DNA of 44,356 bases, from positions 1 through 44,356 of the IMG/VR virus record IMGVR_UViG_3300044466_000065. The stretch is one strand, 5' to 3'. Both the position numbers and the translations under genes were made by a program. The notes under the pieces were generated by a model. That model made no database searches. It saw only the letters and a program-made list of their open reading frames with translations, and was not told where the DNA came from. Source of the DNA: a virus. Below, in pieces: positions 1 through 41,946 of this stretch. Numbering within the stretch: the stretch's first letter is position 1; each line of letters opens with the position of its first letter.

Positions 1-127
1 ACCGAAGAGCTGGTTCTGAGCTGGCAGTGGCGGTAAAAGCCCCGTGAGTTGACGGGCAGACTACCCCCATTCGAGGGTTTTTACCCCCACTTGGACGAAA
101 TCCCCGGCGAAACAGGGCGGAGGCGCA
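1..127. repeat. Terminal direct repeat, copy 1 (circular-assembly overlap)
   Basis: Bases 1-127 (accgaagagctgg...ggcggaggcgca) are identical to bases 44230-44356. Confidence 0.95.
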
Positions 128-156
128 GGGTGAAGGCAGTCAAAGTGTGCTACGAA

Positions 157-186
157 TTGAGACAATCGTAGCAACTTGTAGATAAT
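157..186 (+). promoter_or_regulatory. Candidate sigma70-like early promoter
   Basis: TTGAGA (157-162), 18-nt spacer, GATAAT (181-186); relatively AT-rich stretch upstream of the first rightward ORFs. Confidence 0.35.
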
Positions 187-246
187 CTCAAAAACAGTAC
201 CTAAAGTACTCTTGTTCTAGGTAGAGGTACAAGTTACTATCTGAAT

Positions 247-432
247 ATGAGCACAGACATGAAGTTTTTGTTGGGTACGGTGATGTTGGTGGTATTGGCG
301 ATTGTGTGCCTGGACGCGAAGGTGAAGGCGGATAGCGCGCGATGGATAGAAGAGAATCGGGTATCGATAGAAGCGAACCATGTGGAGAAGAGCTGTGCGT
401 TTCTTCGAGGATGCGTAGAAGTTGGGAAGTGA
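247..432 (+). CDS. Small hypothetical protein with N-terminal hydrophobic segment
   Basis: 61-aa ORF; FLLGTVMLVVLAIVCL looks like a signal or TM segment; no clear SD. Confidence 0.4.
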   Translation: MSTDMKFLLGTVMLVVLAIVCLDAKVKADSARWIEENRVSIEANHVEKSCAFLRGCVEVGK

Positions 433-498
433 AACGCCTTTGGGCGTCGCACGGAATAGCGGCCCGTGTTTTGAAGATCACGCTAAACACAACGAAGG

Positions 499-516
499 AA
501 AAGGGATCACACAAAA
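499..516 (+). promoter_or_regulatory. Conserved early leader motif, copy 1 (GGATCACACA core 504-513)
   Basis: aaaagggatcacacaaaa directly before the ATG at 517. Confidence 0.7.
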
Positions 517-675
517 ATGACGTATCGAATTAGACAACAAGAGATTTGGGACACGTACACGTTGATAGAAGCTGGGTCAGAAGCGGAAGCCATCGCTAAA
601 GTGCTAGATGGGCAAGGAGACCAAGTGTCTTCGGAGTTCAATCGAATGGGCGATTTTAAGGCGGAGGTTGAATAG
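517..675 (+). CDS. Hypothetical protein, 52 aa
   Basis: ATG 517 follows the leader motif; hand translation MTYRIRQQEIWDTYTLIEAG...KAEVE; stop TAG 673-675; below the ORF-track cutoff. Confidence 0.6.
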   Translation: MTYRIRQQEIWDTYTLIEAGSEAEAIAKVLDGQGDQVSSEFNRMGDFKAEVE

Positions 676-676
676 C

Positions 677-1390
677 ATGGCGCTGTTCAAATTCACGCGA
701 GCGGTGGAAGTGAGTGGGAATGAGAAGACGGGGGCGGTATCGACGACGATGGTGTCGCAGGCTTCCTGTCCTCCGGAATGCGCATGGTTCAACGAAGGTT
801 GCTACGCCAATTACGGGAATGCGGGTATTTGGACTTCGGAGTTGAATGCGTTGACTGGAGGAAAGACGGCTGCTATCGACGCGAGAAAGATAGCTCGCGA
901 CGAAGCACGGGCTATCGACAGCCTTACTGGCGAGAATGACATGCGCCTACATGTGGTGGGCGATTCACGGACGAATGGCAGCGCTTCGATCGTCTCGAAG
1001 GCAGCGGAGCGGTTCATGGGGAAATTTGGGCGCAAGGTATGGAGCTATACGCATGCGTGGCGGAGGGTGGCGCGTTCGTCTTGGGGGAAGGTATCGATAC
1101 TGGCATCGTGCGAGACGGTTTCACACGTAATCGATGCGATGGCGCAAGGGTATGCTGCTGCTTTGGTGGTGGACAGGCACCCGGAGGATGGGAAAGCGTA
1201 TCGGGTGGGCGATATCGTCATGATCCCGTGTCCGGCACAGACGAAGGAAGGGGTTCAGTGCGTGGATTGCAAGCTGTGCTGGAGAGATGAGTGGTTATTG
1301 GAAGCCAAACGGTGTATCACGTTCGAGGCGCATGGGAGTGGGGCAAAGAAAGTGCGGGCGGCGTTGATACAGATTGGTGCGGCCGCTTAG
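677..1390 (+). CDS. Cys-rich phage protein, Gp88-like family (by recall)
   Basis: Start MALFKFTRAV at 677, 1 nt after the upstream stop. Motifs KTGAVSTT...SCPPECAWFNEGCYANYGN, RLHVVGDS and a C-terminal CVDCKLCW resemble the GP88-type family. Confidence 0.65.
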   Translation: MALFKFTRAVEVSGNEKTGAVSTTMVSQASCPPECAWFNEGCYANYGNAGIWTSELNALTGGKTAAIDARKIARDEARAIDSLTGENDMRLHVVGDSRTNGSASIVSKAAERFMGKFGRKVWSYTHAWRRVARSSWGKVSILASCETVSHVIDAMAQGYAAALVVDRHPEDGKAYRVGDIVMIPCPAQTKEGVQCVDCKLCWRDEWLLEAKRCITFEAHGSGAKKVRAALIQIGAAA

Positions 1391-1407
1391 TTCGAAGTTT
1401 GGGAATA

Positions 1408-1423
1408 GAAGGGAACACACGAG
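1408..1423 (+). promoter_or_regulatory. Conserved early leader motif, degenerate copy 2
   Basis: gaagggaacacacgag directly before the ATG at 1424. Confidence 0.5.
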
Positions 1424-1633
1424 ATGACAAAAGTTTTGTTGAATGGACGCGAGCGTGACAGTGTCGAGCTCGCCGATTTGGGTAGTGCGATGTTGGGAGG
1501 AGCTCGGTTTCATCTGGAATGCGCGCGGTATCCGGAGAATAACGAGCCCGCAGTGGAGTTGCTGCGCACGCTCGAGACGCTGGTCGATGCTGAGAACGAG
1601 CTCGCGTGGCGTCTGGCGAGCCTGCGCGCGTAG
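1424..1633 (+). CDS. Hypothetical protein
   Basis: 69-aa ORF preceded by a leader-motif variant. Confidence 0.65.
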   Translation: MTKVLLNGRERDSVELADLGSAMLGGARFHLECARYPENNEPAVELLRTLETLVDAENELAWRLASLRA

Positions 1634-1693
1634 TGGTGGGCTCGCATTACGCTTATCCGCGGGGTGAGCGTAGGCGCGAATCTATCGCATTTT

Positions 1694-1712
1694 GAAAGGG
1701 ATCACACAGAAC
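1694..1712 (+). promoter_or_regulatory. Conserved early leader motif, copy 3 (core 1699-1708)
   Basis: gaaagggatcacacagaac before the ATG at 1713. Confidence 0.7.
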
Positions 1713-1868
1713 ATGGGACTCACACTGAAACAGGCGCAATACATTCTCTCGGATATCACGCGCGAAGGCGTGCTGCGCGAGACGATCGTCAAGGCAATAC
1801 TCCTTGGCTGGGGCAGTCATAGCGGGCAATACCGCAGATTCTGCGCGCTATCGTCGGGGCAATACTGA
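1713..1868 (+). CDS. Hypothetical protein, 51 aa
   Basis: Hand translation MGLTLKQAQYILSDITREGVLRETIVKAILLGWGSHSGQYRRFCALSSGQY; stop TGA 1866-1868; leader motif upstream. Confidence 0.55.
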   Translation: MGLTLKQAQYILSDITREGVLRETIVKAILLGWGSHSGQYRRFCALSSGQY

Positions 1869-2038
1869 CGCGATTCTTGCCCCTTGGCTTAGCGCGTGGG
1901 GCGTTGCCGCGGTCTCTCCGGTATCTTGGAGCCTCCCCGAAGGCGCGCGCGTTTGTGGGGCAAATTCAGGGCTTGTAATCGGCAAGCCCAGCTCAAATAA
2001 AACTGTACAAAGACAGACAAAATCGTATAAAGTAGAAC

Positions 2039-2053
2039 AAAGGATCACACACA
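2039..2053 (+). promoter_or_regulatory. Conserved early leader motif, copy 4 (core 2042-2051)
   Basis: aaaggatcacacaca before the ATG at 2054. Confidence 0.7.
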
Positions 2054-2266
2054 ATGAACAGACTAAAGGCAATTGCTTCCATCTTGGCCAACGACGAAGC
2101 ATCCACGGACGAAGAATTGATGGCGCATTTCATGGCGGAATTCGGGTTCAGCCATGGCGAGGCGGAGTGGTATGTGGCAGAGCGTGGGGCCGCGCTCGCC
2201 AATCCCGCCTTTTCAGAAGCCCATCTGCGCGCGGCGGGGCGGGAGGAGGAAACCTGGCGCAGATAG
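2054..2266 (+). CDS. Hypothetical protein
   Basis: 70-aa ORF with leader motif. Confidence 0.7.
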   Translation: MNRLKAIASILANDEASTDEELMAHFMAEFGFSHGEAEWYVAERGAALANPAFSEAHLRAAGREEETWRR

Positions 2267-2333
2267 TCGAAACCCGGTTGCTCCGGGTCGTGCAGCATAG
2301 CCTACTGCGCTTTGAAGAGACAGGCTTTAACTT

Positions 2334-2350
2334 GAAAGGATCACACACAA
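2334..2350 (+). promoter_or_regulatory. Conserved early leader motif, copy 5 (core 2338-2347)
   Basis: gaaaggatcacacacaa before the ATG at 2351. Confidence 0.7.
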
Positions 2351-2740
2351 ATGAAACTCATCACACTGGCATTAGCCGCAGGCATCACGCTGTCGGCGCA
2401 ATCGCCCATCGTCGTGTCGCGGAGCGGGCAATACTTGGGAACGCTCAGCTCGAACCCGTATGACCCCAACTCCATCGCGAACCCTTACGGGCGGTATGGC
2501 TCTCCGTACCAGTCCGACAGCGTGAATAACCCGTACGGTCGCTACGGTTCGCCGTATAGCAATCAGAGCGCGAACAATCCGTATGCGACGCAGGCGCCGA
2601 TCGTGATTGCTCCGCGGCCGTCCTACACCGGCGGGTATCCGGTGTACCATGCTCCGGCGGTGCGGCCGGCCATGTCCTACTACACCCCGGTGCTGCCGGC
2701 CTATCCGATGGCTCCGGTGATGGGAGTGCTGCCCTACTAG
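2351..2740 (+). CDS. Secreted repeat protein (NPYGRYGSPY repeats)
   Basis: Signal-peptide-like MKLITLALAAGITLSAQS, then repeated NPY..YGSPY units and a Pro/Tyr-rich tail. Confidence 0.8.
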   Translation: MKLITLALAAGITLSAQSPIVVSRSGQYLGTLSSNPYDPNSIANPYGRYGSPYQSDSVNNPYGRYGSPYSNQSANNPYATQAPIVIAPRPSYTGGYPVYHAPAVRPAMSYYTPVLPAYPMAPVMGVLPY

Positions 2741-2744
2741 CCAC

Positions 2745-3065
2745 ATGGAGACAGAGAACCGGGTAAAACCGATTCCGCGGAAGCCGTTCTCGGGTCTGTC
2801 CCGGGAGCGGCTTTCGTCGTCGCATCCGGACTTGCTGCGGTCGGCGGCGTATGCCGAGGCGTCGTATCTGCTCGCCTATTTCGGGGATGATGCGCTCAGT
2901 GGGTTAGCCGTGTACTTCGAGGCCATCGCCGAGGATTTCAGAGCGCGCGTGCGCCGGCGGGACCAGGCGTCGAAGCTCGCCGCCGCGGAGGTGCTCGAGG
3001 ATTTGCGTGTCCGTTATCCCCATCTGCATGTGCAGCCTAATCAGCAAGCCAAGCTCAAAAGTTAA
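2745..3065 (+). CDS. Hypothetical protein
   Basis: 106-aa ORF, 4 nt after the upstream stop. Confidence 0.65.
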   Translation: METENRVKPIPRKPFSGLSRERLSSSHPDLLRSAAYAEASYLLAYFGDDALSGLAVYFEAIAEDFRARVRRRDQASKLAAAEVLEDLRVRYPHLHVQPNQQAKLKS

Positions 3066-3071
3066 TCATTC

Positions 3072-3086
3072 GAAAGGATCACACAC
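3072..3086 (+). promoter_or_regulatory. Conserved early leader motif, copy 6 (core 3076-3085)
   Basis: gaaaggatcacacac before the ATG at 3087. Confidence 0.7.
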
Positions 3087-3242
3087 ATGAACACACAACA
3101 GGCATTAGAGGACGCATTGACGTTCCTCGAATCACTCGGCGTCAAAGGCGGCGACGTGCACGATTACTTCGCGCAGGCTATCGAACGGCTGAAAGCCGCC
3201 GCTCCGGCGGCGATGGCAAGCGAACTCGAGGTCATCCTGTGA
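3087..3242 (+). CDS. Hypothetical protein, 51 aa
   Basis: Hand translation MNTQQALEDALTFLESLGVKGGDVHDYFAQAIERLKAAAPAAMASELEVIL; its stop TGA overlaps the GTG start of the methylase gene (GTGA). Confidence 0.6.
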   Translation: MNTQQALEDALTFLESLGVKGGDVHDYFAQAIERLKAAAPAAMASELEVIL

Positions 3243-4120
3243 TCTATCAGGGCGATGCTCTCGAAACCCTCCAGACCCTGCCGAGTGAATCGGTCCATTG
3301 CGCGGTCACTTCGCCGCCCTACTACGGGCTGCGAGACTACGGCATTGCCGGCCAAATCGGGCGCGAGATATCGCCCGATGAATACGTGGCTCGCCTCGTC
3401 GAGGTGTTCGCCGAGGTGCGGCGCGTATTGCGTCCCGATGGCACGCTCTGGGTCAATATCGGCGATTCCTATGCCTCGCGCAAGTCCTCGGATGGGTTGA
3501 AGCCCAAGGACATGGTCGGCATCCCCTGGCTGCTCGCGTTCGCGTTGCGCCGGGATGGCTGGTACCTCAGGCAGGACATCGTGTGGGACAAGCCCAACGG
3601 CATGCCAGAGAACGTGGCCGATCGCTGCACCAAGACCCATGAGTACGTATTCCTGCTCTCGAAAAGCGCCACGTACTATTTCAATGCCAAGGCCATCGAG
3701 GAACGAGCCATTCAGGCGGGGCGCGTGCGGGCCGATAAGATGGGCGGCAACAAGGGGGACAAGGTCCATCATTCCCCCGGCAAGGTCTTCACCGGGAGCG
3801 ACACGCGCCGGTGCCGCGCCGTCTGGAACCTGAATACCCGTCCGTTGAAGGACGCCCATTTCGCGCCGTTCCCCATCGAGTTGCCGGAGCGCTGCCTGTT
3901 GGCGGGCTGCCCGGAAGGTGGCACGGTTCTTGATCCGTTCTTCGGGGCGGGCACGACTGGACTCGCCGCCCTCAAGAATGGCCGGGAATTCATCGGCATC
4001 GAACTGAACCCGGAGTACGTGGCGCTCGCCGAGGCGCGCATCGATGGCGAGTATCCGCTCTTTGCCCCGCTCGCGCCGCCCTGCTCGGTGAGCGCCGAGG
4101 GCAGTCTGGTGTACGCATGA
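3239..4120 (+). CDS. DNA methyltransferase, N6_N4_Mtase family (beta class; SPPY motif, m4C-like)
   Basis: Catalytic motif VTSPPYYGLRDY near the N-terminus and AdoMet motif VLDPFFGAGTTG near the C-terminus; no partner restriction enzyme. Confidence 0.92.
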   Translation: MIYQGDALETLQTLPSESVHCAVTSPPYYGLRDYGIAGQIGREISPDEYVARLVEVFAEVRRVLRPDGTLWVNIGDSYASRKSSDGLKPKDMVGIPWLLAFALRRDGWYLRQDIVWDKPNGMPENVADRCTKTHEYVFLLSKSATYYFNAKAIEERAIQAGRVRADKMGGNKGDKVHHSPGKVFTGSDTRRCRAVWNLNTRPLKDAHFAPFPIELPERCLLAGCPEGGTVLDPFFGAGTTGLAALKNGREFIGIELNPEYVALAEARIDGEYPLFAPLAPPCSVSAEGSLVYA

Positions 4121-4296
4121 AAGTCGGAGACCGTGTTCTGCACAAGGCCACCGGGCGGGTGGCTTACGTCGAGCGCCACGCCTCCGATATACCAGGAGGA
4201 CTCCGGCTTGACCGTTCCATCGAAGGATTCTCCTGGTGGAACGCTCAGGATCTGAAAAAGCTGCCGGCGCTCAAAAAGAAGAGGCCAAAGCCATGA
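4117..4296 (+). CDS. Hypothetical protein, 59 aa
   Basis: ATGA overlap with the methylase stop; MKVGDRVLHKATGRVAYVER... with basic tail KKKRPKP. Confidence 0.55.
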   Translation: MKVGDRVLHKATGRVAYVERHASDIPGGLRLDRSIEGFSWWNAQDLKKLPALKKKRPKP

Positions 4297-4517
4297 TCCG
4301 GAGGCAATCATTCGCCCATAAAGGCATTCGTATGACCGGCGAGGCGGTGCCCACCGAGTACAACGAGATCTCGATCACGCGCGCGAGCCGCTCGACGCTG
4401 CGCTGCCATTTCTGCCTGGAGCCGGCCGCCGGGGAGCGGTTGCGGCTGGGGTTGGTGCGGGCGCGGGTGTGCCCGCCTTGCCGCGTTGCCCGCAATATTC
4501 CGTTGGAGGTTGTATGA
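4293..4517 (+). CDS. Small zinc-ribbon-like protein
   Basis: ATGA-coupled start; CHFC...CPPC cysteine pairs. Confidence 0.55.
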   Translation: MIRRQSFAHKGIRMTGEAVPTEYNEISITRASRSTLRCHFCLEPAAGERLRLGLVRARVCPPCRVARNIPLEVV

Positions 4518-5125
4518 GTCTGCCCCGTCCGATCATCCCCTCGCCCGCGCCGCCGCTCGAGAGGGAGATCCACCCGTATACCGATCCCAGGCCCAAGGTG
4601 TTCGAGGGCGCCACCACTCCGCTGGCCGTCGACGTGGCCAATATGGGCAACGCGCCGCGGCTGCCGGCGGCCGAAGGCGATTATCGTAAGCGCATCCGCG
4701 AGCGCACCAAGGCCAAAGAGAAGGCCGGCCTGAAGTCCAATCCCTCCGTCAAACGCAGGGATCTGATCCCGGGCCACGAGATTTACCTGATGATCTGTCA
4801 GCAAATCGGGGGTGATCCGGAGGCGAAGAAGACCATCACCATCGATGCCGGCGAGGAGCGTACCGCCATGAAAGTGCGGGTCAACTTCTACAGTTGGCGC
4901 CAGGCCACCATCCGCGAACTCGGCCCCGACTTCGCCAAGGACAACCACCTCCAGGACATCAAGGTGTATCTCGATCCGGTGCTCGATGAGAATGGGGTGA
5001 TCGTGCGCCACCCGCGCCGGCATATCCCCAAGTCCAACGGCAAGGTGATTTTCTATAGCATCCGCTCGATGAGGGAGATGCAGGCGCTGTCGCAGGCCCT
5101 GCCGCAATTGGGGGTAGCACCATGA
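4514..5125 (+). CDS. Hypothetical protein
   Basis: ATGA-coupled start (MSLPRPII...); 203 aa with protein-like composition. Confidence 0.7.
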   Translation: MSLPRPIIPSPAPPLEREIHPYTDPRPKVFEGATTPLAVDVANMGNAPRLPAAEGDYRKRIRERTKAKEKAGLKSNPSVKRRDLIPGHEIYLMICQQIGGDPEAKKTITIDAGEERTAMKVRVNFYSWRQATIRELGPDFAKDNHLQDIKVYLDPVLDENGVIVRHPRRHIPKSNGKVIFYSIRSMREMQALSQALPQLGVAP

Positions 5126-5475
5126 AAACCTGGCTGCATGACGGCATGGACACCAACGACGACCACTATCCCACTCCGAAGCCCGAGCATACCTTCGCTA
5201 CGATCTGGCCGGACGCGGCGCCGCGCGATGAACGCGATTCAACCTGCCCGTGGTGCAAGCTCCCCTTGATCGAGTGCGCCTGTGAAGAGCCGGAGCCTGA
5301 GCCGGTGCGCTGTGTCGAATGCGGCATGCCCCTGCTCTACTGCGAGTGCGACAAAAGAATTCTCGAGGAGGAGATCCTCGCTGATCAGGATGCCGCGGCC
5401 CAAGCCGCCGAGGAGGAAGGCGCGTTCGACCCGGAAAAGGACGAGCCGTTCGACCCCAGATTGGGGGAACGATAA
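5122..5475 (+). CDS. Cys-rich acidic hypothetical protein
   Basis: ATGA-coupled; CPWC, CAC, CVEC and CEC motifs; acidic C-terminus. Confidence 0.7.
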   Translation: MKTWLHDGMDTNDDHYPTPKPEHTFATIWPDAAPRDERDSTCPWCKLPLIECACEEPEPEPVRCVECGMPLLYCECDKRILEEEILADQDAAAQAAEEEGAFDPEKDEPFDPRLGER

Positions 5476-5660
5476 TGGACTGGCTCTGCTATACCGCCGC
5501 CCTGCTCGCCTGCGGCCTCACCCTCGGCAACGTGCTGGTGGCTTCGTGGTCATACGGCAAGACGGACAAGCGCATCATGGACCTGGAGGCTCGGCTGGCC
5601 GGCCTCGAGCGGGTGCGCTCCGCCGATCCCTACGTTTATACGCAAGCCGATCTGGAATAA
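5475..5660 (+). CDS. Small membrane protein
   Basis: TAATG coupling; N-terminal TM segment LCYTAALLACGLTLGNVLVASW. Confidence 0.6.
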   Translation: MDWLCYTAALLACGLTLGNVLVASWSYGKTDKRIMDLEARLAGLERVRSADPYVYTQADLE

Positions 5661-5661
5661 T

Positions 5662-5714
5662 TATCTAGATTTGTGTAAAGGGGTATTGACATCTATCTAG
5701 ATGAATGAGATTAT
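5662..5714 (+). promoter_or_regulatory. Sigma70-like promoter flanked by two TATCTAGAT palindromic boxes
   Basis: TTGACA 5686-5691, 17-nt spacer, GATTAT 5709-5714; TATCTAGAT at 5662-5670 and 5694-5702. Confidence 0.5.
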
Positions 5715-5721
5715 AGGTACA

Positions 5722-5739
5722 GAAAGGATCACACACACA
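5722..5739 (+). promoter_or_regulatory. Conserved early leader motif, copy 7 (core 5726-5735)
   Basis: gaaaggatcacacacaca before the ATG at 5740. Confidence 0.7.
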
Positions 5740-6006
5740 ATGACTGTTAACTTCCACCCGCACGAGGCCGATCAGGCCCGCTTCGAAGCCAAGATCGTCC
5801 AAGGCACCGCCTGGTTCTCCATCGTTGCCAACGACGGCGTCTCCAACTTCACGCTGTTCATCGATCCCCGCAAGATCGGCCACGTCATGGGCCAGATGGA
5901 GAAGGCGCTCGGCGAGATGGAAACCATCGCCGCCCACCTCGACCGCGACTCCGATGCCGAACTCGCCCCCGCGGGCGTCTCCGAACAAGACGGGGTGGCT
6001 GTCTAA
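5740..6006 (+). CDS. Hypothetical protein
   Basis: Start MTVNFHPHE follows the leader motif; the track ORF start at 5701 lies inside the promoter. Confidence 0.7.
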   Translation: MTVNFHPHEADQARFEAKIVQGTAWFSIVANDGVSNFTLFIDPRKIGHVMGQMEKALGEMETIAAHLDRDSDAELAPAGVSEQDGVAV

Positions 6007-6929
6007 TGAGCGACAATCTCCCGATGAAGATGGGTCTGGCCGAGGTCCAGACCCTCGGCGCTTTGCTCGCCAAGTCCGGCTATTTCCAGGATGCCAAGGA
6101 CGCGGCGCAGGCGTGTGTCAAGGTGTTGGCAGGGCAGGAGTTGGGTCTGCCCCCGATCGCCTCGATGATGGGCATCTCCTTGATAAAAGGGAAGGTTACC
6201 CTCTCCGCCAACCTCATGGCCGCCTTGATCCGCCAGCATGGCTACGACTTCCGCGTTGAGCGGCTCGAACAGGATGGCTGCACCCTCTCCTTCCTCGCCA
6301 AGGATGGCAAGGAACTCGGCAAGTCCACCTTCACCGCCAAGGATGCTCAGGCCGCCGGCATCCGCGGCGACATGTATAACAAATACCCCCGCAACATGTA
6401 CTTTGCCCGGGCGATCAGCAACGGGGCCAAGTGGTTCACGCCGGAGATCTTCGGCGGCGTGCCCGTCTACTCGGATGGCGAACTCGGTGGCGACGAGGGA
6501 GAGGTGGTTCAGCCGGAGCCTGCTCCTGCCCCCGTGCCTGCGCGCCAAACGGCTACGTCTGTACGCATCGAGGGTGCCCGCCAGCCCGTCGAGGAGGCCA
6601 AGCCTGCCCCGGTGCCTCTCCCCGACATAGAGCCGCGCCTCGCCGAACTGTACGCGCAGGCGACCGGGTTTGCCGAGACGGTGCAAATCGTGACCGGGTT
6701 CAAGCCGATCATCAACGAACTCACCGGCTCCGAGCACGAGTACTATCGCATCATCAATTCGCATGGCATGCAGCACGGGAATGAGTTGCAGGGAAAAACC
6801 CGCGGGCAGATCCGCAAAGTGATTAAAGACTTGTATGAGTACTGTGCGACGATCGCTAGCCCGCCTCCCCCCGATCCGGCTGAAGCGGCTGAAGCCTGGG
6901 ATGCTCTCGCGGAGGGCACCGATGTATAG
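6006..6929 (+). CDS. RecT/Redbeta-like single-strand annealing protein (tentative)
   Basis: GQELGLPPIASMMGISLIKGKVTLSANLMAALI and YPRNMYFARAISNGAKWF resemble phage SSAP families; a Gp157-like gene follows two genes downstream. Confidence 0.55.
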   Translation: MSDNLPMKMGLAEVQTLGALLAKSGYFQDAKDAAQACVKVLAGQELGLPPIASMMGISLIKGKVTLSANLMAALIRQHGYDFRVERLEQDGCTLSFLAKDGKELGKSTFTAKDAQAAGIRGDMYNKYPRNMYFARAISNGAKWFTPEIFGGVPVYSDGELGGDEGEVVQPEPAPAPVPARQTATSVRIEGARQPVEEAKPAPVPLPDIEPRLAELYAQATGFAETVQIVTGFKPIINELTGSEHEYYRIINSHGMQHGNELQGKTRGQIRKVIKDLYEYCATIASPPPPDPAEAAEAWDALAEGTDV

Positions 6930-7335
6930 AACCCACGGCATGAGGAACAGCCCCGAGAACGAGGCTTGGCACGCCATGAAACAGCGGTGCAACAACCCGA
7001 AGAGTCAGGCTTACAAGAACTACGGTGGCAGGGGCATCCAGGTCTGTCCCGAATGGGCTTCCTTCGAAGCCTTCTACCGGGACATGGGACCGCGCCCGAG
7101 TCCCAAGCATAGTCTCGAACGGATCGACAACGAGCGAGGCTACGAGGCAGGGAACTGCCGCTGGGCCACTCTGATCGAGCAGCACCAGAACACACGCTAC
7201 TCCCGGTTCCTGGAGTTTGGCGGAGAAACCAAAGCCTGCGCCGAATGGTGCAGGGAACTCGGCATCAAACCATCGACGCTGTGTGACCGGCTGAAACGGG
7301 GATGGTCCGACGAGATGGCTTTAGGATACCGATGA
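6922..7335 (+). CDS. Homing-endonuclease-associated AP2-like DNA-binding protein (paralog of 41947..42360)
   Basis: EAWHAMKQRCNNPKSQAYKNYGGRGIQVCPEW...SLERIDNERGYEAGNCRWAT, a recurrent phage motif; start overlaps the upstream stop. Confidence 0.7.
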   Translation: MYRTHGMRNSPENEAWHAMKQRCNNPKSQAYKNYGGRGIQVCPEWASFEAFYRDMGPRPSPKHSLERIDNERGYEAGNCRWATLIEQHQNTRYSRFLEFGGETKACAEWCRELGIKPSTLCDRLKRGWSDEMALGYR

Positions 7336-7919
7336 AGAACAACACCAAGTCAATGACCCTCTACCACATAGAGGAAGACCTCCTGATGATGGCGGATTCA
7401 GAGGCGCTGGTGCCTCAGGACCAGCTTCAAGAGTTCCAGGAGTTGTTCGCCGCTAAAACCGAGCAAGCCCTCATGAAAAGGGGTTCGTGCATCCGCGCCA
7501 TCTCCCACCTTGAGGCGCAGATTGCCGGCGCCCGTGCCGAGGAGAACCGCATTGCCGCCTGGCGCGGCAGCCTTGAGTCTGGCCTCGCCCGCTTCAAGGA
7601 TTACCTCGTCAGGTGCATCGAACTGTCGGGCCAGAAGAAAGTCGAGGCCGACAACGGCTCGCTTGCCATCCAGGCGAATCCGGAGAGCGTCGAGATCACC
7701 GATTTGGATCAGGTGCCCGACGAGTTCAAAACCGTCACCGTCAAGATGCCGGCCATGCTCTGGCGGGAAATATGCACCGAGTACCGGCCCGCCGATCTCA
7801 CCGGCTGCGATGCCACCTTCACCGCCTCCAAGACGCAGATCAAGGCAGCCTTGAAGGAAGGGCGCGACGTGCCCGGGGCCGATACCCGTTTCGGGAAATG
7901 GTCTCTTCGGGTACGCTGA
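7332..7919 (+). CDS. Siphovirus Gp157-like protein
   Basis: ATGA-coupled; N-terminal coiled coil, then SLAIQANPESVEITDLDQVPDEFK...IKAALKEGRDVPGA, as I recall for the Gp157 family. Confidence 0.6.
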   Translation: MKNNTKSMTLYHIEEDLLMMADSEALVPQDQLQEFQELFAAKTEQALMKRGSCIRAISHLEAQIAGARAEENRIAAWRGSLESGLARFKDYLVRCIELSGQKKVEADNGSLAIQANPESVEITDLDQVPDEFKTVTVKMPAMLWREICTEYRPADLTGCDATFTASKTQIKAALKEGRDVPGADTRFGKWSLRVR

Positions 7920-7923
7920 CCTC

Positions 7924-8292
7924 ATGCTGCCGGGCCTGCTCAAGAAGTTCGGCTTATCCAAGGACGGGGGCGTGTCCCCCGTCGAACCCGTTTTACCCCT
8001 TGGCATACGTGATAAGAAGCGCTTCAACGAACTCGATCGCCTGATCGCCGCTGGTTACGGGGAGATCAGTCAAGACAAGATCCCCGACGAGGTGATGATC
8101 GCCGTCGAGGAAGGCAAGCCCGTGCCGCGGCGCCGCCCTGCCAATGAGGCGAATCCCTTCGCCGCGCCGGCCAAGCCGAAGAAGCCGCCGCGCCAGATGA
8201 CCCAGGAGAAGATCGAGCGGCGCCGGTATCTGGCTAAGCAGCGGTATGACTACAGATTTCCCGGAAGGAAGCAATTGAAAGGAACCGAATGA
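7924..8292 (+). CDS. Hypothetical protein
   Basis: 122-aa ORF in tightly packed operon context. Confidence 0.65.
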   Translation: MLPGLLKKFGLSKDGGVSPVEPVLPLGIRDKKRFNELDRLIAAGYGEISQDKIPDEVMIAVEEGKPVPRRRPANEANPFAAPAKPKKPPRQMTQEKIERRRYLAKQRYDYRFPGRKQLKGTE

Positions 8293-8630
8293 TAGAAATC
8301 AACCAGTCATTTAAAGAAGCCAATACCACCATCGGCATGGGACCGGCCACGGTGTTGATCACTCCGCCCATTGGGTCCGGCTACTTTATCGCCCGAGTCC
8401 CGCTGTTCGCCGATCAGGCCATCCAAATCTTTCCAAAGTTCTCGACTGTGGGCTGCGGGTTCGCTCAAGAGGAAGACTGGAATACCAACTTGCCGATCAC
8501 TCTTCCGGCAGAAGAGATTTACCGCCATATCGAGCACAACAAGAAGTACTCCGAAATCACCGAAGATCAGGCAATCGCGGCGATTAAGGAACTGCAGCAG
8601 TGGTGGACAAGCCAGAGGAATAGCGAATGA
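8289..8630 (+). CDS. Hypothetical protein
   Basis: ATGA-coupled 113-aa ORF. Confidence 0.7.
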   Translation: MIEINQSFKEANTTIGMGPATVLITPPIGSGYFIARVPLFADQAIQIFPKFSTVGCGFAQEEDWNTNLPITLPAEEIYRHIEHNKKYSEITEDQAIAAIKELQQWWTSQRNSE

Positions 8631-8830
8631 CGAAGGATCACCTGAACAAAGTGCGCGAGGCCATTGCCTGCCTCGAAGAGGCCGCCAGCTACATCTCGCG
8701 CGATTTCTGCATAGCCAGGAAGCTGCACACCCGCATCCAGGATGCCGGCGACCGGCTGGTCGAGGTGCGGGAGGAGATCCAGATGCGGCTTGAGGCCGAA
8801 GAGAATTTCAAGAAAGCGGTGTCCCGATGA
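8627..8830 (+). CDS. Hypothetical protein
   Basis: ATGA-coupled 67-aa ORF. Confidence 0.65.
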   Translation: MTKDHLNKVREAIACLEEAASYISRDFCIARKLHTRIQDAGDRLVEVREEIQMRLEAEENFKKAVSR

Positions 8831-8964
8831 AACCCATGCGTGTTGTTGCTGTCGGTGAGGACGGTGCCGTCAAGGTGCGACCGCTCACCTGGTCTGAGCG
8901 CCTCGCCTACGGCTTCGGCCATGCCGCGGGCTGGCTGGCCGCCAGGATCTTCAGGCGTGGCTAA
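8827..8964 (+). CDS. Hypothetical protein, 45 aa
   Basis: ATGA-coupled; MKPMRVVAVGEDGAVKVRPLTWSERLAYGFGHAAGWLAARIFRRG; competes with an alternative long start of the next gene. Confidence 0.35.
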   Translation: MKPMRVVAVGEDGAVKVRPLTWSERLAYGFGHAAGWLAARIFRRG

Positions 8965-9304
8965 GATCCCCGCCGCGAAAAGCCCGCATGAGGAAGCCTT
9001 TGCCATCGCCTGGAAGGCCCTCGGCGGGCCGCCGCCCGAGCGCGAGTGGCGCTTTGCCCTCCCCGAAAGGCAGTGGCGCTTCGATTTCTGCTGGCCCAAG
9101 GCAATGGTTGCCGTTGAGATCGACGGTGGTGTCCACGAGGGCAAAAGCCGCGGTAGGCATATGCGCCAGGGCGGCTACGAAAAGGACGCCGAGAAATTGA
9201 ACGAAGCAAATTTCCTGGGCTGGCGCGTGTTCCGGCTGACACCATCCATGATGCAGCCGCTGCTACTCGAGCGCCTCGCCTGGGAGATAAGGCGGTGCCT
9301 GTGA
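8957..9304 (+). CDS. Vsr/DUF559-like (PD-(D/E)xK fold) endonuclease; start uncertain (GTG 8957 or ATG 8921)
   Basis: FDFCWPKAMVAVEIDGGVHEG...DAEKLNEANFLGWRVFRL matches the very-short-patch-repair-like endonuclease core. Confidence 0.6.
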   Translation: MAKIPAAKSPHEEAFAIAWKALGGPPPEREWRFALPERQWRFDFCWPKAMVAVEIDGGVHEGKSRGRHMRQGGYEKDAEKLNEANFLGWRVFRLTPSMMQPLLLERLAWEIRRCL

Positions 9305-9507
9305 GACCCCTCGGCCTAACCCAGCAGGACTACGAGGAGCTTGAAAACCCCAGCCGCGCGGCGGAACCGGTTTCCCCTTTACCGTCCCTCACCTGGGGGG
9401 AAGAGTGTTTGTTTGTAGCAGCTTGCGCCTTCTTCCTCACCCTCATCGCCTTCTTCTACGTTACTGCACTGTTGTGCAGAATGGTCACGGGGAGGTGGCC
9501 GCGATGA
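9295..9507 (+). CDS. Small membrane protein
   Basis: GTG start; TM segment CLFVAACAFFLTLIAFFYVTALLC. Confidence 0.5.
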   Translation: MPVRPLGLTQQDYEELENPSRAAEPVSPLPSLTWGEECLFVAACAFFLTLIAFFYVTALLCRMVTGRWPR

Positions 9508-9686
9508 TCATCCTCAACGTGCTCGAAGAAACCCGCATGCCGGCGCTCGCCTCGCATGCCGATGACGACGGCTCGGTGGTGGTCACCACCTTGGGCAGCC
9601 GGGTGCGCCTCGACCCCCGGAACCTCAAGCTTCAGGTGCTGGTCCGTATCGCATTAAGCCTGGCTTTAGGAAGGCATTCCAAGTAA
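9504..9686 (+). CDS. Hypothetical protein
   Basis: ATGA-coupled 60-aa ORF. Confidence 0.5.
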   Translation: MIILNVLEETRMPALASHADDDGSVVVTTLGSRVRLDPRNLKLQVLVRIALSLALGRHSK

Positions 9687-9695
9687 GCTAGAGCC

Positions 9696-9986
9696 ATGAT
9701 TGACAAGCTAGTCTCCAACGCAGGGGAGAAGATCACGGGGAGACCATGCGAACTATGCCGAAACACCGGCATCGTCTCACTCGTAGGTAGACCGGCGCGC
9801 GTTCGCTTCGAAGATATCTGGAAGTGGCAGGCCCCCTGCGGCTGCCATGCTGGGGACCAGTGGCGGAAGGAAGCGCAGGTCTGCCTCGCGCCGCCGCCGT
9901 GCGAGGTGTGCGGCAGGCTCGCCGAGGTCACCCTCACCACCTACCCGCGCTGCGTGAAGTGCGATCTGGGTCGGCGGTGTTGCTAG
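9696..9986 (+). CDS. Cys-rich hypothetical protein
   Basis: CELC, CGC, CEVC and CVKC cysteine pairs. Confidence 0.6.
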   Translation: MIDKLVSNAGEKITGRPCELCRNTGIVSLVGRPARVRFEDIWKWQAPCGCHAGDQWRKEAQVCLAPPPCEVCGRLAEVTLTTYPRCVKCDLGRRCC

Positions 9987-9993
9987 GCGGCCA

Positions 9994-10176
9994 ATGTCTT
10001 ATACCGATTTGATGGACGCGCGGGACATCATTGAGGTGGCGCTTCTCAAAGTGTATGAAGAGCAGGGATTTACACCTGCCTGGCACACCCTCTCACATGC
10101 CGAGAGTCATATCAGCGGGCAGGCTCGGGAAGCCTTGCGCGGGATCGCATGGAAAGTCGAGCGCCCGGAGCGATGA
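9994..10176 (+). CDS. Hypothetical protein
   Basis: 60-aa ORF. Confidence 0.6.
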   Translation: MSYTDLMDARDIIEVALLKVYEEQGFTPAWHTLSHAESHISGQAREALRGIAWKVERPER

Positions 10177-10370
10177 GGGGAGTGACCTACATCCGCCGCA
10201 ATCCGTTCCGGTTCTCGATCAACGAAGGCGGCTGGGGGTTCGTCCTTTCCCACGGCATGGAGTTCGGCGAAGGCAATGATACCTACGGCTTCTGCTACCC
10301 GCTTTCCTTCCTTGGCATCCATCCCCGCTGGACCTGGCGCGGCTGGTTCAAGAACCTGCGGAAGGTATGA
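10173..10370 (+). CDS. Hypothetical protein
   Basis: ATGA-coupled start (MRGVTYIRRNPF...). Confidence 0.6.
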   Translation: MRGVTYIRRNPFRFSINEGGWGFVLSHGMEFGEGNDTYGFCYPLSFLGIHPRWTWRGWFKNLRKV

Positions 10371-11055
10371 GATGTTGCTTAAGCAGTTAGCCTTGTACGC
10401 TCGCGTCTTCGACGCCGCGCACTTCTTTCTGCCCTCAATTCCTATGCTTCACAGAGGTGCATGGTATATGGCCGGTGCGGCCATGCCTCGCGGGGCGAGG
10501 TTATCTTTGCTGCGCGCTTCGCTTGCTCTGACTGCGCGCTTCGCTTGCCCTGAAACTCGTCGGGCCACTTGCTACCTAAGTAACGAGTGGCCCGATCTGT
10601 CTAGTAGGTGCGCCGTTGAGCGCAGTCCGATCTTAACACATAACCTATGGAGATTCCCGAGCAGACGCACCGGGACCTACCACCCGGTCCCGATCGCGAT
10701 AACCCACGGTTTCATCCGTCGCTTTCCGCAGGTGGCTTCGATCTTGGGTATGCCACCAACCTGTCCGAATTCCTCTGCGCCGGGGAAGAGTTCCTCTCGG
10801 GGATGCACCGGTGCTGGGACTTGGACCCGCACCGTCCGACCATTTCAGGCCGACCGGTCCTTCTGCCGTATCAAAATACGGCGTACACTCCGCAGAGACG
10901 CTTTACGTGGTCTGTTAGGATACACCGGTCGACGCAGGCTATGTCCTGTCATTGACTGTTCCACGCTGATGCTGAGATTTATGCCTCATATCACGGCTGC
11001 GCCTACCAGAGCGCGCCACCTTCCGATGACCTCAGAAGTATACACCTAAACTCGT
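10371..11055 (+). other. 685-bp ORF-poor, hairpin- and repeat-dense segment (candidate structured RNA or replication origin)
   Basis: Only non-protein-like ORFs cover it. Stable local hairpins, an exact 17-nt direct repeat (10510-10526 and 10532-10548) and three ACCGGT-centred palindromes. It is the only large gap in an otherwise overlapping gene array. Confidence 0.5.
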
Positions 11056-11775
11056 ATGCCCAAGCGGAAAATTGTGAGCGACGTTGACGCCTACGACCGC
11101 ATGCCTGCGGCACAGTTCACCGCGCCGCCGCTTAAGCCCAAGCGGAAGAAGCTGAATCCACGCCAGCGCAAGCGCCTTCGCCAACAGTTAAAGGTGGTTC
11201 CCGACCAGTGGTACAAGCGCTACATGAACCACCTCCGCTCCCAGAAGTGGCGGCTGTTCAAGGTCAACATCCTCGCCGAGCGGGGTACGATGTGCGAACG
11301 CTGCGGGAAATTCGGTAAGCAACTGGAGCTACACCACATCAACTATGCGAGGATGGGCCACGAATTACCCGAGGACGTGAAGCTCTATTGCAGAGACTGT
11401 CACACCGACATGCACCGGCACCGGTCGTGGAAGGGCCGAGGCAAAAAACTAATTACGGAGAAGCACATGGCAGAAGAGACTCCGAAATCCCCGGAAAATT
11501 CCGGTGAAGCGAAAGAGCATCTGCACGAGTGGGAGAACCTGGAACCGGGCAAGTGGCGATGCACCATCTGCCAGATAGAGGGCATCGGCCCGGTGAAGTA
11601 CGTGTCGAAGTGCTTGGTCTGCGGGTATCCGGCCGCCCTGCACCTCGGCGGCCCCGACGACCACGGCTACCCCTACGTGCACGTCACGCTCGAGGACGTG
11701 GAGCTTTGGAGAAAAGCGGGCGACTCCGAGCAGGCGATCATGTCGCGCATCGCAGCAAGGGGCATGGCCGAATGA
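11056..11775 (+). CDS. HNH nuclease with Arg/Lys-rich N-terminus and C-terminal zinc ribbon
   Basis: CERCGKFGKQLELHHINYARMGHELPEDVKLYCRDCHTDMH is an HNH motif; N-terminal KPKRKKLNPRQRKRLRQQLK; CTIC...CLVC. Confidence 0.8.
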   Translation: MPKRKIVSDVDAYDRMPAAQFTAPPLKPKRKKLNPRQRKRLRQQLKVVPDQWYKRYMNHLRSQKWRLFKVNILAERGTMCERCGKFGKQLELHHINYARMGHELPEDVKLYCRDCHTDMHRHRSWKGRGKKLITEKHMAEETPKSPENSGEAKEHLHEWENLEPGKWRCTICQIEGIGPVKYVSKCLVCGYPAALHLGGPDDHGYPYVHVTLEDVELWRKAGDSEQAIMSRIAARGMAE

Positions 11776-11966
11776 ACATCGAGCGGGCCTGCTGTACCTG
11801 CCAATGGTGGGATCGGAAGAGCTTCAAGAAAGCGGAGCGCAACACCGGCTGGTGCCGCATCCTTCCGCCGAGGAATAACGGCGGAGACGAATCGTACTGG
11901 GGCTGGCCTCTCACCTACGACGAAGATTGGTGCAGCCGGTATCAGCCGCGCGAGGAGGCGAAGTGA
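11772..11966 (+). CDS. Small Cys/Trp-rich protein (tandem paralog 1)
   Basis: ATGA-coupled; CCTCQWWDRK...GWCRILPP...WCSRYQP. Confidence 0.6.
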   Translation: MNIERACCTCQWWDRKSFKKAERNTGWCRILPPRNNGGDESYWGWPLTYDEDWCSRYQPREEAK

Positions 11967-12160
11967 TGGACAAGATCTGCCGGAACTGCAGCAACTGGTC
12001 AGCTCGCAACACCGACGTCGGAATTTGCACCCTCAACCCGCGGGTCTGGGCCGGTAGCTGGGAGTACCCTGCGCAGTTCGCTATCGACACCTGCAGCCAC
12101 TTCGAGGCAACCACCGTGCTCGCGCCCGTCGCGAAAGGGAAGGGCAAGAGTGCTGCCTGA
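11966..12160 (+). CDS. Small Cys/Trp-rich protein (tandem paralog 2)
   Basis: TGATG coupling; CRNCSNWSAR...GICTLNP...TCSHFE has the same cysteine spacing as the upstream gene. Confidence 0.6.
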   Translation: MDKICRNCSNWSARNTDVGICTLNPRVWAGSWEYPAQFAIDTCSHFEATTVLAPVAKGKGKSAA

Positions 12161-12404
12161 CTGGCTTCTCCTCCTGTGGTGGCAGATCTTCCCGCCGCCC
12201 ATGATCTGGATCAGAGTCGTCTGCCACGGCTACCATGATGGCGAGAACGAAATCCAGATCCGCATCATGCGCCTCAACGTGCGCGGCCCGTTCTCCTCTA
12301 CGCTCGAGCGCATCGTACAGCAGGGCGGCATCATCACGCCGCACCAGTTCGTGCCGCTCGCCAAAGTCTTCACCGTGGAGGAGATCGATGGCCAGGCACT
12401 TTGA
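12150..12404 (+). CDS. Hypothetical protein (start uncertain: GTG 12150 or ATG 12201)
   Basis: ORF bridging neighbours with short overlaps. Confidence 0.45.
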   Translation: MLPDWLLLLWWQIFPPPMIWIRVVCHGYHDGENEIQIRIMRLNVRGPFSSTLERIVQQGGIITPHQFVPLAKVFTVEEIDGQAL

Positions 12405-37159: not shown

Positions 37160-37657
37160 CTAACTTTCCTGTTCTTCGAGGTTGGCTTCGAGGGTGAGGG
37201 GAGCGGTGGCGCGCCGGGAGAGCGCCCGCTCGCGCGCCTCATTAATAATGTTCACGTCGACCTGCAGGTGCGAGTGGACGTGCATGTCGGTCGAGTAGCC
37301 CTTGGGGTTGATGTAGCCGAGGGCGGTGAGCGAGAGCTTGGCGGCGGTGAGCAGCTCGCGCGACTCGAGTTCGTTCTCTTCGAGACGGCGATCGATTTCA
37401 TCCAGCGAGCGGTGCGCGAGGCTGTTCAATTTTTCGGTGATTTTGGCACCGACAAACACCGCCTCCGTATTTTGTTCCTTGCAGGCTTCTAAATACGCAG
37501 CCTGGAACAGATCGTTGTGGAGGACCGTACTGACGTACTGACGACCGAGGTTCAATTCGATGGCTGCTTCCCTCAACTGCCGATGCGGATTGGCGAGGAG
37601 CCATGACAGCAAAGCCCGGTGCCGATGATTCAAACTCTTGAGTTCAGTGGCCAGCAT
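37160..37657 (-). CDS. HTH protein, possible terminase small subunit
   Basis: First gene after a 206-bp intergenic gap; REAAIELNLGRQYVSTVL HTH-like segment; coiled-coil centre. Confidence 0.45.
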   Translation of the reverse strand: MLATELKSLNHRHRALLSWLLANPHRQLREAAIELNLGRQYVSTVLHNDLFQAAYLEACKEQNTEAVFVGAKITEKLNSLAHRSLDEIDRRLEENELESRELLTAAKLSLTALGYINPKGYSTDMHVHSHLQVDVNIINEARERALSRRATAPLTLEANLEEQES

Positions 37658-37824
37658 TCAGATTCCTAAAAGAGAGGGCCGATGAACCTAGTCAGCGCCC
37701 ACCGGCCCTTCCCCCCGAACGGGGATGGATCACACGAGCGACCCGTCCGAGGAACCAATCAACCAGATTGTGCCCAATTTCCAGTCAAAGGCCACGCAAG
37801 AGAAACTCGCGACCTAATGGGGGT

Positions 37825-37854
37825 ATGGTACGCCTCTTCAATAAGATCAGTCAA
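37825..37854 (-). promoter_or_regulatory. Candidate promoter for the morphogenesis operon
   Basis: Minus-strand TTGACT (37854-37849), 18-nt spacer, TACCAT (37830-37825). Confidence 0.3.
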
Positions 37855-37863
37855 TAAATAGGT

Positions 37864-41827: not shown

Positions 41828-41946
41828 TTCTACCTAGCCATCATAGCGCATAACTAGGAATAGCTAGATAAATATTTGCATCCCGTAAGTGTAAGCGCCC
41901 TGGAACAAAACAAATCGATTCTGAATACCCCAGTTTGCGGGGCGGC

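Follow-up and report, generated by a model that had tools for sequence, protein, structure and literature searches.

Introduction

The closest described counterpart of the element studied here is the Start-Associated Sequence (SAS) of Cluster K mycobacteriophages, which is present in 11–19 copies and whose function is unproven (Pope et al. 2011, PMC3203893). In the passages of that paper devoted to it, the SAS has the consensus 5'-GGGATAGGAGCCC, about half of its sites carry upstream 17-bp imperfect inverted repeats (ESAS), and it is essentially absent from the host genome (PMC3203893). Here we analyze an analogue of the SAS, not a member of it, in a phage genome of 44,356 base pairs (bp) that was examined over its full length (IMG/VR virus record IMGVR_UViG_3300044466_000065, positions 1 to 44,356; the window in what follows). 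The element is the 13-nucleotide (nt) motif AARGGAWCACACA, which stands just ahead of seven early start codons. The reading that we favor, with a probability of roughly 0.6, is that AARGGAWCACACA is an extended translation-initiation region heading each independently translated cistron of the variable leftmost early region.

Translational enhancers rich in ACA or CA, which are targeted by the small RNA GcvB, provide a precedent for part of this motif (Yang, Figueroa-Bossi & Bossi 2014, PMC3879156, citing Sharma et al. 2007). In Salmonella, altering any base of an ACA near the ribosome-binding site lowers translation, and replacement of the four ACAs of dppA reduced expression more than 100-fold, with an effect that was independent of exact position (PMC3879156). 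T4-like phages carry promoter-early stem-loop (PeSL) cassettes in their early regions (Arbiol et al. 2010, PMC2839356; Comeau et al. 2014, PMC4122927). The host-takeover module of the Bacillus phage SPO1 is composed of small early genes whose promoters and ribosome-binding sites are typical of high expression (Stewart et al. 1998, in PMC6873191). The window resembles SPO1 in having a cluster of small early genes at one end of the genome; however, the SPO1 sites are described in that account as strong, and not as one repeated string with a conserved spacer.

A 13-nt motif precedes seven early start codons

The core GGATCACACA occurs in six exact copies, all on the + strand, at 504–513, 1699–1708, 2042–2051, 2338–2347, 3076–3085 and 5726–5735, just as a preliminary description of this DNA had placed them; 0.11 copies are expected by chance, and none of 100 dinucleotide shuffles reaches six. 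When up to 2 mismatches are allowed, 32 sites are found against 34 expected, and because this count sits at chance level, only near-exact copies are meaningful. A search with the 13-nt consensus AARGGAWCACACA and at most one mismatch returns seven sites against 0.17 expected (Table 1). This search recovers the degenerate copy at 1409–1421 that had been noticed before the ATG at 1424, and the start codons that had been assigned to the other six copies are likewise correct. A further string, GTTCACACACAA, had been reported at 42665–42676; it really lies at 42672–42683, 7 nt away, is not followed by a start codon, and seems to occur by chance.

The placement of the motif is uniform. The 13-mer ends 1–4 nt before the start codon at all seven sites, the start codon is ATG at every one, the spacer from GGA to ATG measures 8–11 nt, and two to four overlapping ACA triplets lie between the Shine-Dalgarno sequence and the AUG at each site. 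The motif is found only between 501 and 5735, always on the + strand, and a motif scan bears out the earlier statement that no late gene has it; the ribosome-binding sites of the late genes are ordinary AGGA or GGAG with varied spacers. The broader claim that every early cistron not coupled to its predecessor carries the motif holds for the first 5.8 kb, where all seven starts with an upstream gap of at least 21 nt do so. It does not hold for the first early gene (247–432), which lacks the motif, nor for the early and middle genes beyond 6 kb, which use GGAGG-type sites or coupling through overlapping stop and start codons.

As far as the SAS is described in the passages cited above, these traits are close to its own. 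Both elements are 13 nt long, asymmetric, held in a single orientation and associated with non-structural genes; both lie a few nt before starts, with ATG preferred; both have a Shine-Dalgarno core followed by further conserved bases, which here would lie past the 16S pairing, judged on the usual bacterial 16S rRNA; and both are conserved ahead of unrelated gene families, in the case of the SAS across subclusters. The two differ in that their sequences are unrelated (GGGATAGGAGCCC vs AARGGAWCACACA), the phages are unrelated and their host phyla differ, and there are seven copies here rather than 11–19. Moreover, what is conserved here in addition to the core is a CA repeat, for which enhancer activity has a precedent, and no ESAS-type repeats are present, the upstream regions having unrelated hairpins or none.

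Table 1 Motif copies, predicted promoters and predicted hairpins of the window.
Feature	Position	Strand	Sequence	Remarks
Motif copy	501..513	+	AAGGGATCACACA	3 nt before ATG 517 (52-amino-acid ORFan)
Degenerate motif copy	1409..1421	+	AAGGGAACACACG	2 nt before ATG 1424 (69-amino-acid open reading frame)
Motif copy	1696..1708	+	AAGGGATCACACA	4 nt before ATG 1713
Motif copy	2039..2051	+	AAAGGATCACACA	2 nt before ATG 2054
Motif copy	2335..2347	+	AAAGGATCACACA	3 nt before ATG 2351 (129-amino-acid protein)
Motif copy	3073..3085	+	AAAGGATCACACA	1 nt before ATG 3087; starts 10 nt past stop codon 3063-3065
Motif copy	5723..5735	+	AAAGGATCACACA	4 nt before ATG 5740, head of RecT operon
Strong predicted hairpin	~1633-1688	+		z-score -3.4; followed by AUUUUG; upstream of motif 1696
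Promoter-like string	2004-2031	+	TGTACA (2004-2009)-16-TATAAA (2026-2031)	ends ~7-8 nt before motif 2039; geometry as at 5723
Sigma-70-like promoter	5686..5714	+	TTGACA-17-GATTAT, extended TG	predicted start ~5721
Sigma-70-like late promoter	37825..37854	-	TTGACT-18-TACCAT	position conserved in relatives; followed by a leader of ~70 nt
Hairpin H1	37716..37749	-	stem CGGACGGG/CCCGUUCG; 18-nt loop UCGCUCGUGUGAUCCAUC	loop carries GUGUGAUCC
Hairpin H2, terminator-like	37676-37708	-	loop CUGACUAG	followed by UCUCUUUU tract, 37668-37675
Start of first late gene	37657	-	AGGAA Shine-Dalgarno sequence, then start codon	just after H2 and the UCUCUUUU tract

Motif-led starts are predicted to be open for ribosomes

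The predicted energy needed to open the region from -20 to +12 around the start codon is 3.0–6.5 kcal/mol for the seven motif-led starts (4.5 kcal/mol at the copy at 501..513), while it is 7.3–19.5 kcal/mol for all 38 other starts (Mann-Whitney p = 1.7e-5), making the motif-led starts the least structured of the 45 in the genome by prediction. The motif string is also a good ribosome-binding site elsewhere. An exact 17-mer form of it, AGAAAGGATCACACACA, has 21 matches among the 185,579 species representatives of GTDB, and 12 of the 21 stand directly before an ATG. These ATG-associated matches come from Actinobacteria, Firmicutes, Chloroflexi, Nitrospira, Acidobacteria, Alphaproteobacteria and a bacterium of the candidate phyla radiation, with at most one match per genome and none of the 21 from a phage relative. 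In IMG/VR, an ATG follows within 8 nt of the exact 14-mer in 59 of 121 cases among the matches listed, which are mostly unrelated single matches.

We propose that the 5' half of the motif, (AG)AAAGGA, acts as the Shine-Dalgarno sequence and could pair with the last 7–8 nt (UCCUUUCU) of a typical bacterial 16S rRNA, UCCUUUCU being the usual 3' terminus of this rRNA outside enterobacteria. This half of the model expects a host 16S tail that ends in ...CCUCCUUUCU. GGA matches the opening three bases of canonical GGAGG, so that the spacer of 8–11 nt corresponds to an aligned spacing of ~6–9 nt, which is within the usual optimum. The 3' half, UCACACA(CA)n, would fill the distance up to the AUG with ACA repeats that should be unable to fold onto their G-poor neighbors, and the outcome would be an open, high-affinity landing pad for ribosomes on small early genes that cannot make use of translational coupling. 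At the two sites that lie at the very 5' end of a predicted transcript, a bound ribosome could also shield the mRNA from decay. Taken together, the low predicted structure, the published activity of ACA repeats, the fixed placement, the Shine-Dalgarno core and the copy that follows a stop codon make a translation cassette the best-supported reading, and thus favor the earlier suggestion of a module-specific initiation cassette with a CA-rich enhancer.

The likeness to the enhancers targeted by GcvB lies in ACA repeats that are located in or next to the ribosome-binding site and in an effect that does not depend on exact spacing. Since every ACA base matters in those enhancers, such a function would explain why the motif is conserved base by base. 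The known cases, however, are enterobacterial host genes, each with a sequence of its own and with the ACAs mostly upstream of the Shine-Dalgarno sequence, whereas here one identical phage cassette is reused, the repeat lies between the Shine-Dalgarno sequence and the AUG, and the enhancer role is putative.

A number of points weigh against the translational reading. Both the pairing with 16S rRNA and the enhancer effect are carried over from what is known of other bacteria, the late genes of the same phage, major capsid included, manage with ordinary GGAG sites, and the near-invariant U/A and C after GGA are more than an unstructured spacer strictly needs. In addition, the exact complement of the motif found in a conserved loop of the late leader (see below) suggests an additional recognition function. 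Finally, CA-containing spacers are not enriched in more distant relatives, where they make up 2–3% of the starts led by a Shine-Dalgarno sequence, which is the background. This last result indicates that the design is specific to the clade and is not a general host rule; together with the phage's own late genes, which lack the motif, it speaks against the extended motif being the general ribosome-binding context of the host, a possibility that the preliminary description had raised against its own proposal.

Past the GGA, the motif hardly varies in sequence (W C A C A C A), and these bases could not pair with CCUCC, the usual anti-Shine-Dalgarno sequence, which is used here in place of that of the host. 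A conservation that reaches past the Shine-Dalgarno sequence, in a motif found on one gene class only, could mean that a translational regulator binds the RNA there and uses the motif as its operator; the regulator would be either phage-encoded, like T4 RegA, or a host protein such as CsrA. AAGGAU or AGGGAU is present in the motif, AAGGAUC contains the CsrA core ARGGAU, and the site at 501 has a second GGA 7 nt upstream. Nevertheless, we consider such an operator quite improbable, because the motif is not predicted to lie in a hairpin loop, unlike high-affinity CsrA sites, and the U of the CsrA core is missing from the GGAAC variant. A start-site sequence shared between genes is present here as in RegA-type operators, but the early proteins scanned, most of which are ORFans, yielded neither an RNA-binding domain nor a RegA-like family. 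The earlier idea of a regulator binding site gains a candidate RNA partner in the copy at 37728, which the preliminary description had listed without interpreting it and which is the reverse complement of the motif in the loop of a covarying hairpin.

Promoters and hairpins upstream of the motif

A recognizable promoter is present in only two or three of the intergenic regions that contain the motif. A good example is the sigma-70-like promoter ahead of the RecT operon, for which relatives have the version TTGACA/TTGCAA-17-TACTAT: the motif at 5723 is 8 nt downstream of it, the transcript would begin at the A of AGAAAGG, and the motif would thus be located at the extreme 5' end of the RNA. The promoter-like string at 2004–2031 was read by eye and gave no call with the scanner; it is conserved in relatives ahead of at least five different open reading frames (ORFs). 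Hairpins are predicted upstream of the sites at 501, 1696, 2039 and 2335, while the site at 3073 has neither hairpin nor promoter. The latter site begins so soon after a stop codon that there is no room for a promoter, and it must act on polycistronic RNA. Because promoters and hairpins precede some copies and the copy at 3073 abuts a stop codon, we conclude that the motif is an RNA-level element that heads cistrons whether or not they have a promoter of their own.

The motif had also been suggested to be a very compact phage-specific promoter. This possibility is ruled out by the position of 3073–3085 behind the stop codon and by the sites at 5723 and 2039, which lie at about +1 of separate sigma-70-like promoters. 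For an RNase processing site, which had been suggested as well, the observations speak neither way.

Two further features of these upstream regions are worth describing. The string TATCTAGAT occurs twice (5663–5670 and 5695–5702), each time with the palindrome ATCTAGAT, on either side of the -35 element of the RecT-operon promoter, and CTAG-rich strings akin to it are present near 215–225 and 41835–41870. These strings are probably operators for a DNA-binding regulator. A winged-helix ORF (MarR/HTH_36-like, by weak Pfam matches) is encoded in the relatives L244 and L245 and aligns to ~43.0–43.4 kb of the window. The first early gene, which has no Shine-Dalgarno sequence, is preceded at 212–249 by TTGTTC-17-TACTAT, then 6 nt, then the ATG at 247, and judging by this arrangement it may be translated from a leaderless mRNA. 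The region 191–250 is 90–93% conserved in relatives, and here too the homology ends at the ATG.

Small early genes are exchanged between conserved intergenic regions

About a dozen related genomes, all from uncultured phages, were collected through searches with RecT, terminase and primase, and have protein identities of 58–99% to the window. The motif is common to these relatives, in which its chief variants are GGATCACACA and GGAACACACA; the GGAACACACA form of the degenerate copy at 1409 is seen again ahead of other genes. Exactly 13 positions stand out in an alignment of 34 distinct site contexts from about nine related genomes: their information content approaches the maximum, and it drops to almost nothing at both edges. 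The motif stands ahead of at least 18 unrelated small ORF families in these genomes, and the motif-led ORFs of the window have no match in a PHROG scan; a Pfam scan of three of them found no match either. The protein that begins at 2351 has an N-terminus that resembles a signal peptide by inspection, and the orthologue of its motif site is kept in five relatives. The 17-mer AGAAAGGATCACACACA before the RecT operon is invariant in the seven related loci fetched with RecT, although both of its neighbors diverge, the promoter on the upstream side and the first gene on the downstream side.

Comparison of the genomes with blastn reveals a mosaic in which the intergenic regions 191–250, 424–513, 1633–1715, 1890–2058 and 2263–2350 are conserved, while the ORFs at 517–675, 1713–1868 and 2054–2266 are replaced by unrelated ORFs in relatives. 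The homology stops at the motif or the ATG and restarts at the stop codon of the replaced ORF. Depending on the genome, the promoter-like string and motif at 2004–2051 are followed by one of five different ORFs. The motif would thus belong to conserved intergenic scaffolds, composed of a hairpin, sometimes a promoter, and then the ribosome-binding site, between which unrelated ORFs are swapped, and such an exchange implies that the sequence is kept uniform by both selection and recombination.

This arrangement is similar to that of the PeSL cassettes, where conserved intergenic regulatory sequences bound insertions, deletions and replacements of small variable early ORFs. However, PeSLs are repeated promoter-plus-terminator composites that are alike within a genome, whereas the intergenic regions here share just the 13–16-nt motif, plus one pair of 22-nt repeats. 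Elements of a composite are present in part (promoters at 5686–5714 and 2004–2031, and hairpins at four sites), with neither at 3073. The phage type also differs, as the window encodes an SU10-like portal and capsid within 44 kb.

The exchange of ORFs at these boundaries brings up the possibility that the motif is an ordinary Shine-Dalgarno sequence and nothing more, its uniformity being a by-product of cassette junctions that were recombined or duplicated, in other words a scar or linker. The breakpoints of cassette replacement do fall at the motif or the ATG, and the 22-nt direct repeat, whose two copies (1976–1997 and 3038–3059) are 91% identical and lie upstream of two motif copies, shows that pieces of intergenic sequence have been copied. 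Yet orthologous sites are identical over exactly 13 nt while the upstream promoter and the downstream gene diverge or change, 13 nt are too short for efficient homologous recombination, and a scar does not predict low structure at all seven sites. We therefore regard this explanation as improbable. One copy of the 22-nt repeat is intergenic and the other lies inside the 3' end of the gene at 2745–3065; the repeat is a trace of intergenic cassette sequence having been copied in the past.

The motif appears to be restricted to this clade. It is absent from the more distant phages L241 and L242 (42% primase identity), and in relatives with 35–41% identity in the large terminase (TerL) the relevant regions could not be read across. 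The relative L162, whose TerL is 60% identical, has AAGGAGACAC(AC)nATG before its terS-like and major-capsid genes (3880–3903 and 10940–10963). L162 is also without the hairpin leader described below, and three tandem 13-bp repeats containing GGCCCACACA are located near its left end (520–555).

The late leader carries a complement of the motif in a conserved hairpin loop

The 9-mer GGATCACAC has seven copies in the genome, all on the same DNA strand, where ~0.3 copies of a random 9-mer are expected by simple arithmetic. Six of these are the early sites and the seventh, at 37727–37735, is intergenic; the preliminary description had correctly located GATCACAC at 37728–37735. Read on the - strand, from which the late genes are transcribed, this seventh copy is GUGUGAUCC, the exact complement of the early core GGAUCACAC. 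It is located in the loop of H1, the first of two predicted hairpins in the leader that precedes the first late gene (Table 1). By simple arithmetic, the chance of finding a complement of the 9-mer core in a given 18-nt loop is below 1e-4, and that for a 7-mer is below 1e-3. With such low figures the complementarity between loop and motif is unlikely to be accidental, although its meaning may be read in several ways.

Ten distinct versions of the leader were collected. The arms of H1 vary among them (CGGACGGG/CCCGUUCG, CGGGCGAC/GUCGCCCG, GGGCAGC/GCUGCCU and GAGCGGG/CCCGCUC) in a manner that preserves the stem, with 98.6% of cells paired and changes on both sides in six of eight pairs; none of 500 shuffles was as good, and slid controls gave 36–56% paired. 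In the loop, GUGAUCC is invariant in all ten leaders and GUGUGAUCC is present in most, whereas the loop flanks and the stem vary. H2 is predicted in 9/9 leaders folded, its loop CUGACUA(G/A) is conserved in all distinct leaders but those of L153 and L126, and the U tract that follows is weak in some relatives. The late leader resembles a promoter-proximal terminator or an antitermination leader. No Rfam family matches it, and a pattern search for more leaders (TTTCGGGCG...CGGGAAAWGGG) returned only the known relatives and chance matches in coding sequence.

The complement suggests that the motif could be a recognition tag, besides or instead of an enhancer, such that GUGUGAUCC in the late-leader loop pairs with GGAUCACAC and stops or times translation. 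We regard this as a tentative and rather unlikely idea, and only slightly more doubtful is its full form, a circuit in which all independently translated immediate-early cassettes share GGAUCACAC as a tag and the late leader supplies the anti-tag. The leader would act as a terminated transcript of ~150 nt or as the 5' untranslated region of the late mRNA, and its buildup would bring about pairing with all tagged ribosome-binding sites, switching off or timing early synthesis. In the tagged cistrons, the paired stretch would take in the spacer and the final 3 nt of the Shine-Dalgarno sequence. The logic would be like that of GcvB, as enhancers of that type double as targets of GU-rich single-stranded RNA that pairs with their CA-rich sequence, for which GUGUGAUCC in the H1 loop is a candidate here. 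For the SAS, no such partner is mentioned in the passages that describe it (PMC3203893).

In favor of such pairing, the only GGATCACAC outside the six early sites is a complement on the late-transcribed strand, it is situated in the loop of a covarying stem with GUGAUCC invariant, and a sigma-70-like promoter and a second, terminator-like hairpin belong to the leader itself. Opening the target 9-mers is predicted to cost 1–2.7 kcal/mol, which would leave them accessible, and both elements are present in 8/8 genomes in which both regions could be read. These genomes, however, are all from one clade, so their co-occurrence is not independent evidence, and the complementarity extends over just 7–9 nt. 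Two lineages have a shorter, 7-nt version of the complement in the loop, CUCGUGAUCC, while their early motifs are still GGAUCACACA, and no co-variation of loop and motif was found. Sites of the GGAACACACA (GGAAC) variant would pair poorly with the loop, duplexfold of the whole loop against early mRNAs was not specific for the motif sites and matched GC-rich coding sequence more strongly, and the U tract after H2 is weak in some relatives.

The loop may also have another partner. GGAUCAC, which equals the early motif core, lies in what we take to be the universal 3' tail of 16S rRNA, as the seven bases ahead of the anti-Shine-Dalgarno CCUCC. The loop sequence GUGAUCC is complementary to this tail too, so that the loop could instead bind ribosomes, for example as a standby site or a 5' stabilizer. 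If it does, the early motif would match the rRNA tail by coincidence.

Phage antisense RNAs that mask ribosome-binding sites, namely the c4 RNA of P1/P7, sar of P22 and the prophage-encoded DicF, would provide a model for the late-leader loop. The phage-internal antisense RNAs among them, c4 and sar, are known to act on a single target region each, and we know of no single anti-tag directed against a tag that is shared by many early cistrons of the same phage.

That all seven copies of GGATCACAC, including the one in the late leader, lie on the same strand might also be expected of a site that works in the DNA, such as a stoperator-like roadblock or a compact promoter, or of an RNA processing site. 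The motif is asymmetric, as are the stoperators of L5. We find this class of explanation very unlikely. The distance to the ATG is fixed, the string contains a Shine-Dalgarno core, and the late copy, lying in a loop that a covarying stem closes, argues for RNA. Stoperators of Cluster A mycobacteriophages are bound by the immunity repressor and are oriented with transcription in both arms, whereas the late copy here is inverted relative to transcription. Neither an integrase nor a repressor was recognized among the proteins scanned, and no contig longer than the phage was found except one of 89 kb. The promoter version has no room at 3073, and sigma-70-like promoters are already present upstream of two sites.

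The phage and its possible host

The first and last 127 bp of the window are an exact direct repeat (1–127 = 44230–44356), and the identical ends and the length show that the window is a complete phage genome, either circular or terminally redundant. An identical TerL protein is encoded on more than 20 metagenome contigs, each no longer than 50 kb. The 89-kb contig, which carries a related phage, has about twice the unit length and is most simply a two-copy (concatemer) assembly. The phage is probably virulent; the proteins scanned included no recognizable integrase or repressor, and none of the contigs found was of prophage size.

The early and replication genes occupy the + strand from 247 to 13,602 and encode DUF7227, a DNA methyltransferase, RecT, a Gp157/Gam-like protein, an HNH protein and a primase. 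The late genes are on the - strand, from 37,657 down to 13,599, and encode the large terminase, an SU10-type portal and an SU10-type capsid. The window contains no tRNA genes and no known RNA family from Rfam, which was searched with the whole window at the gathering threshold and with 1–6100 and 37600–37900 by E-value. Among cultured phages, a match was found to the methyltransferase gene only, and the window has no cultured relative; a RecT-profile scan of GTDB genomes for the host gave no match.

The methyltransferase, of the beta class, is encoded at 3239–4120. In the whole window, GATC occurs 307 times where base composition predicts 158, about a twofold excess, and the T-to-A variants of the motif lose GATC; on these grounds a link of the motif to GATC avoidance or methylation was set aside. 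At 40056–40763 on the - strand, the window encodes a protein with a C-terminal PEP-CTERM sorting motif, whose homologues (50–88% identity) are all on phage-like metagenome contigs that are of phage length or, in one case, twice that. The presence of this protein hints at a Gram-negative host with an exosortase system.

Discussion

This clade offers a second and simpler example of repeated start-associated sequences, one whose additional conserved bases form an ACA repeat. As the enhancer activity of ACA repeats has experimental precedent, the hypothesis that the motif is an enhancer can be tested directly. The conserved scaffolds around the motif make up a plug-and-play expression slot for small early genes that are exchanged rapidly. 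The motif-led genes, all of which are ORFans here, are likely host-takeover or anti-defense genes, and slots of this kind are of use both in phage engineering and in the search for genes of this type in metagenomes.

The complement in the late-leader loop is new here and hints at a built-in off-switch. If loop and tag do pair, this would be a new means of timing the early-to-late switch at the level of translation, in which one phage-internal antisense RNA has many targets and is aimed at a translational enhancer. A tag and anti-tag of this kind, if real, would also offer a testable function for the start-associated sequences of other phages.

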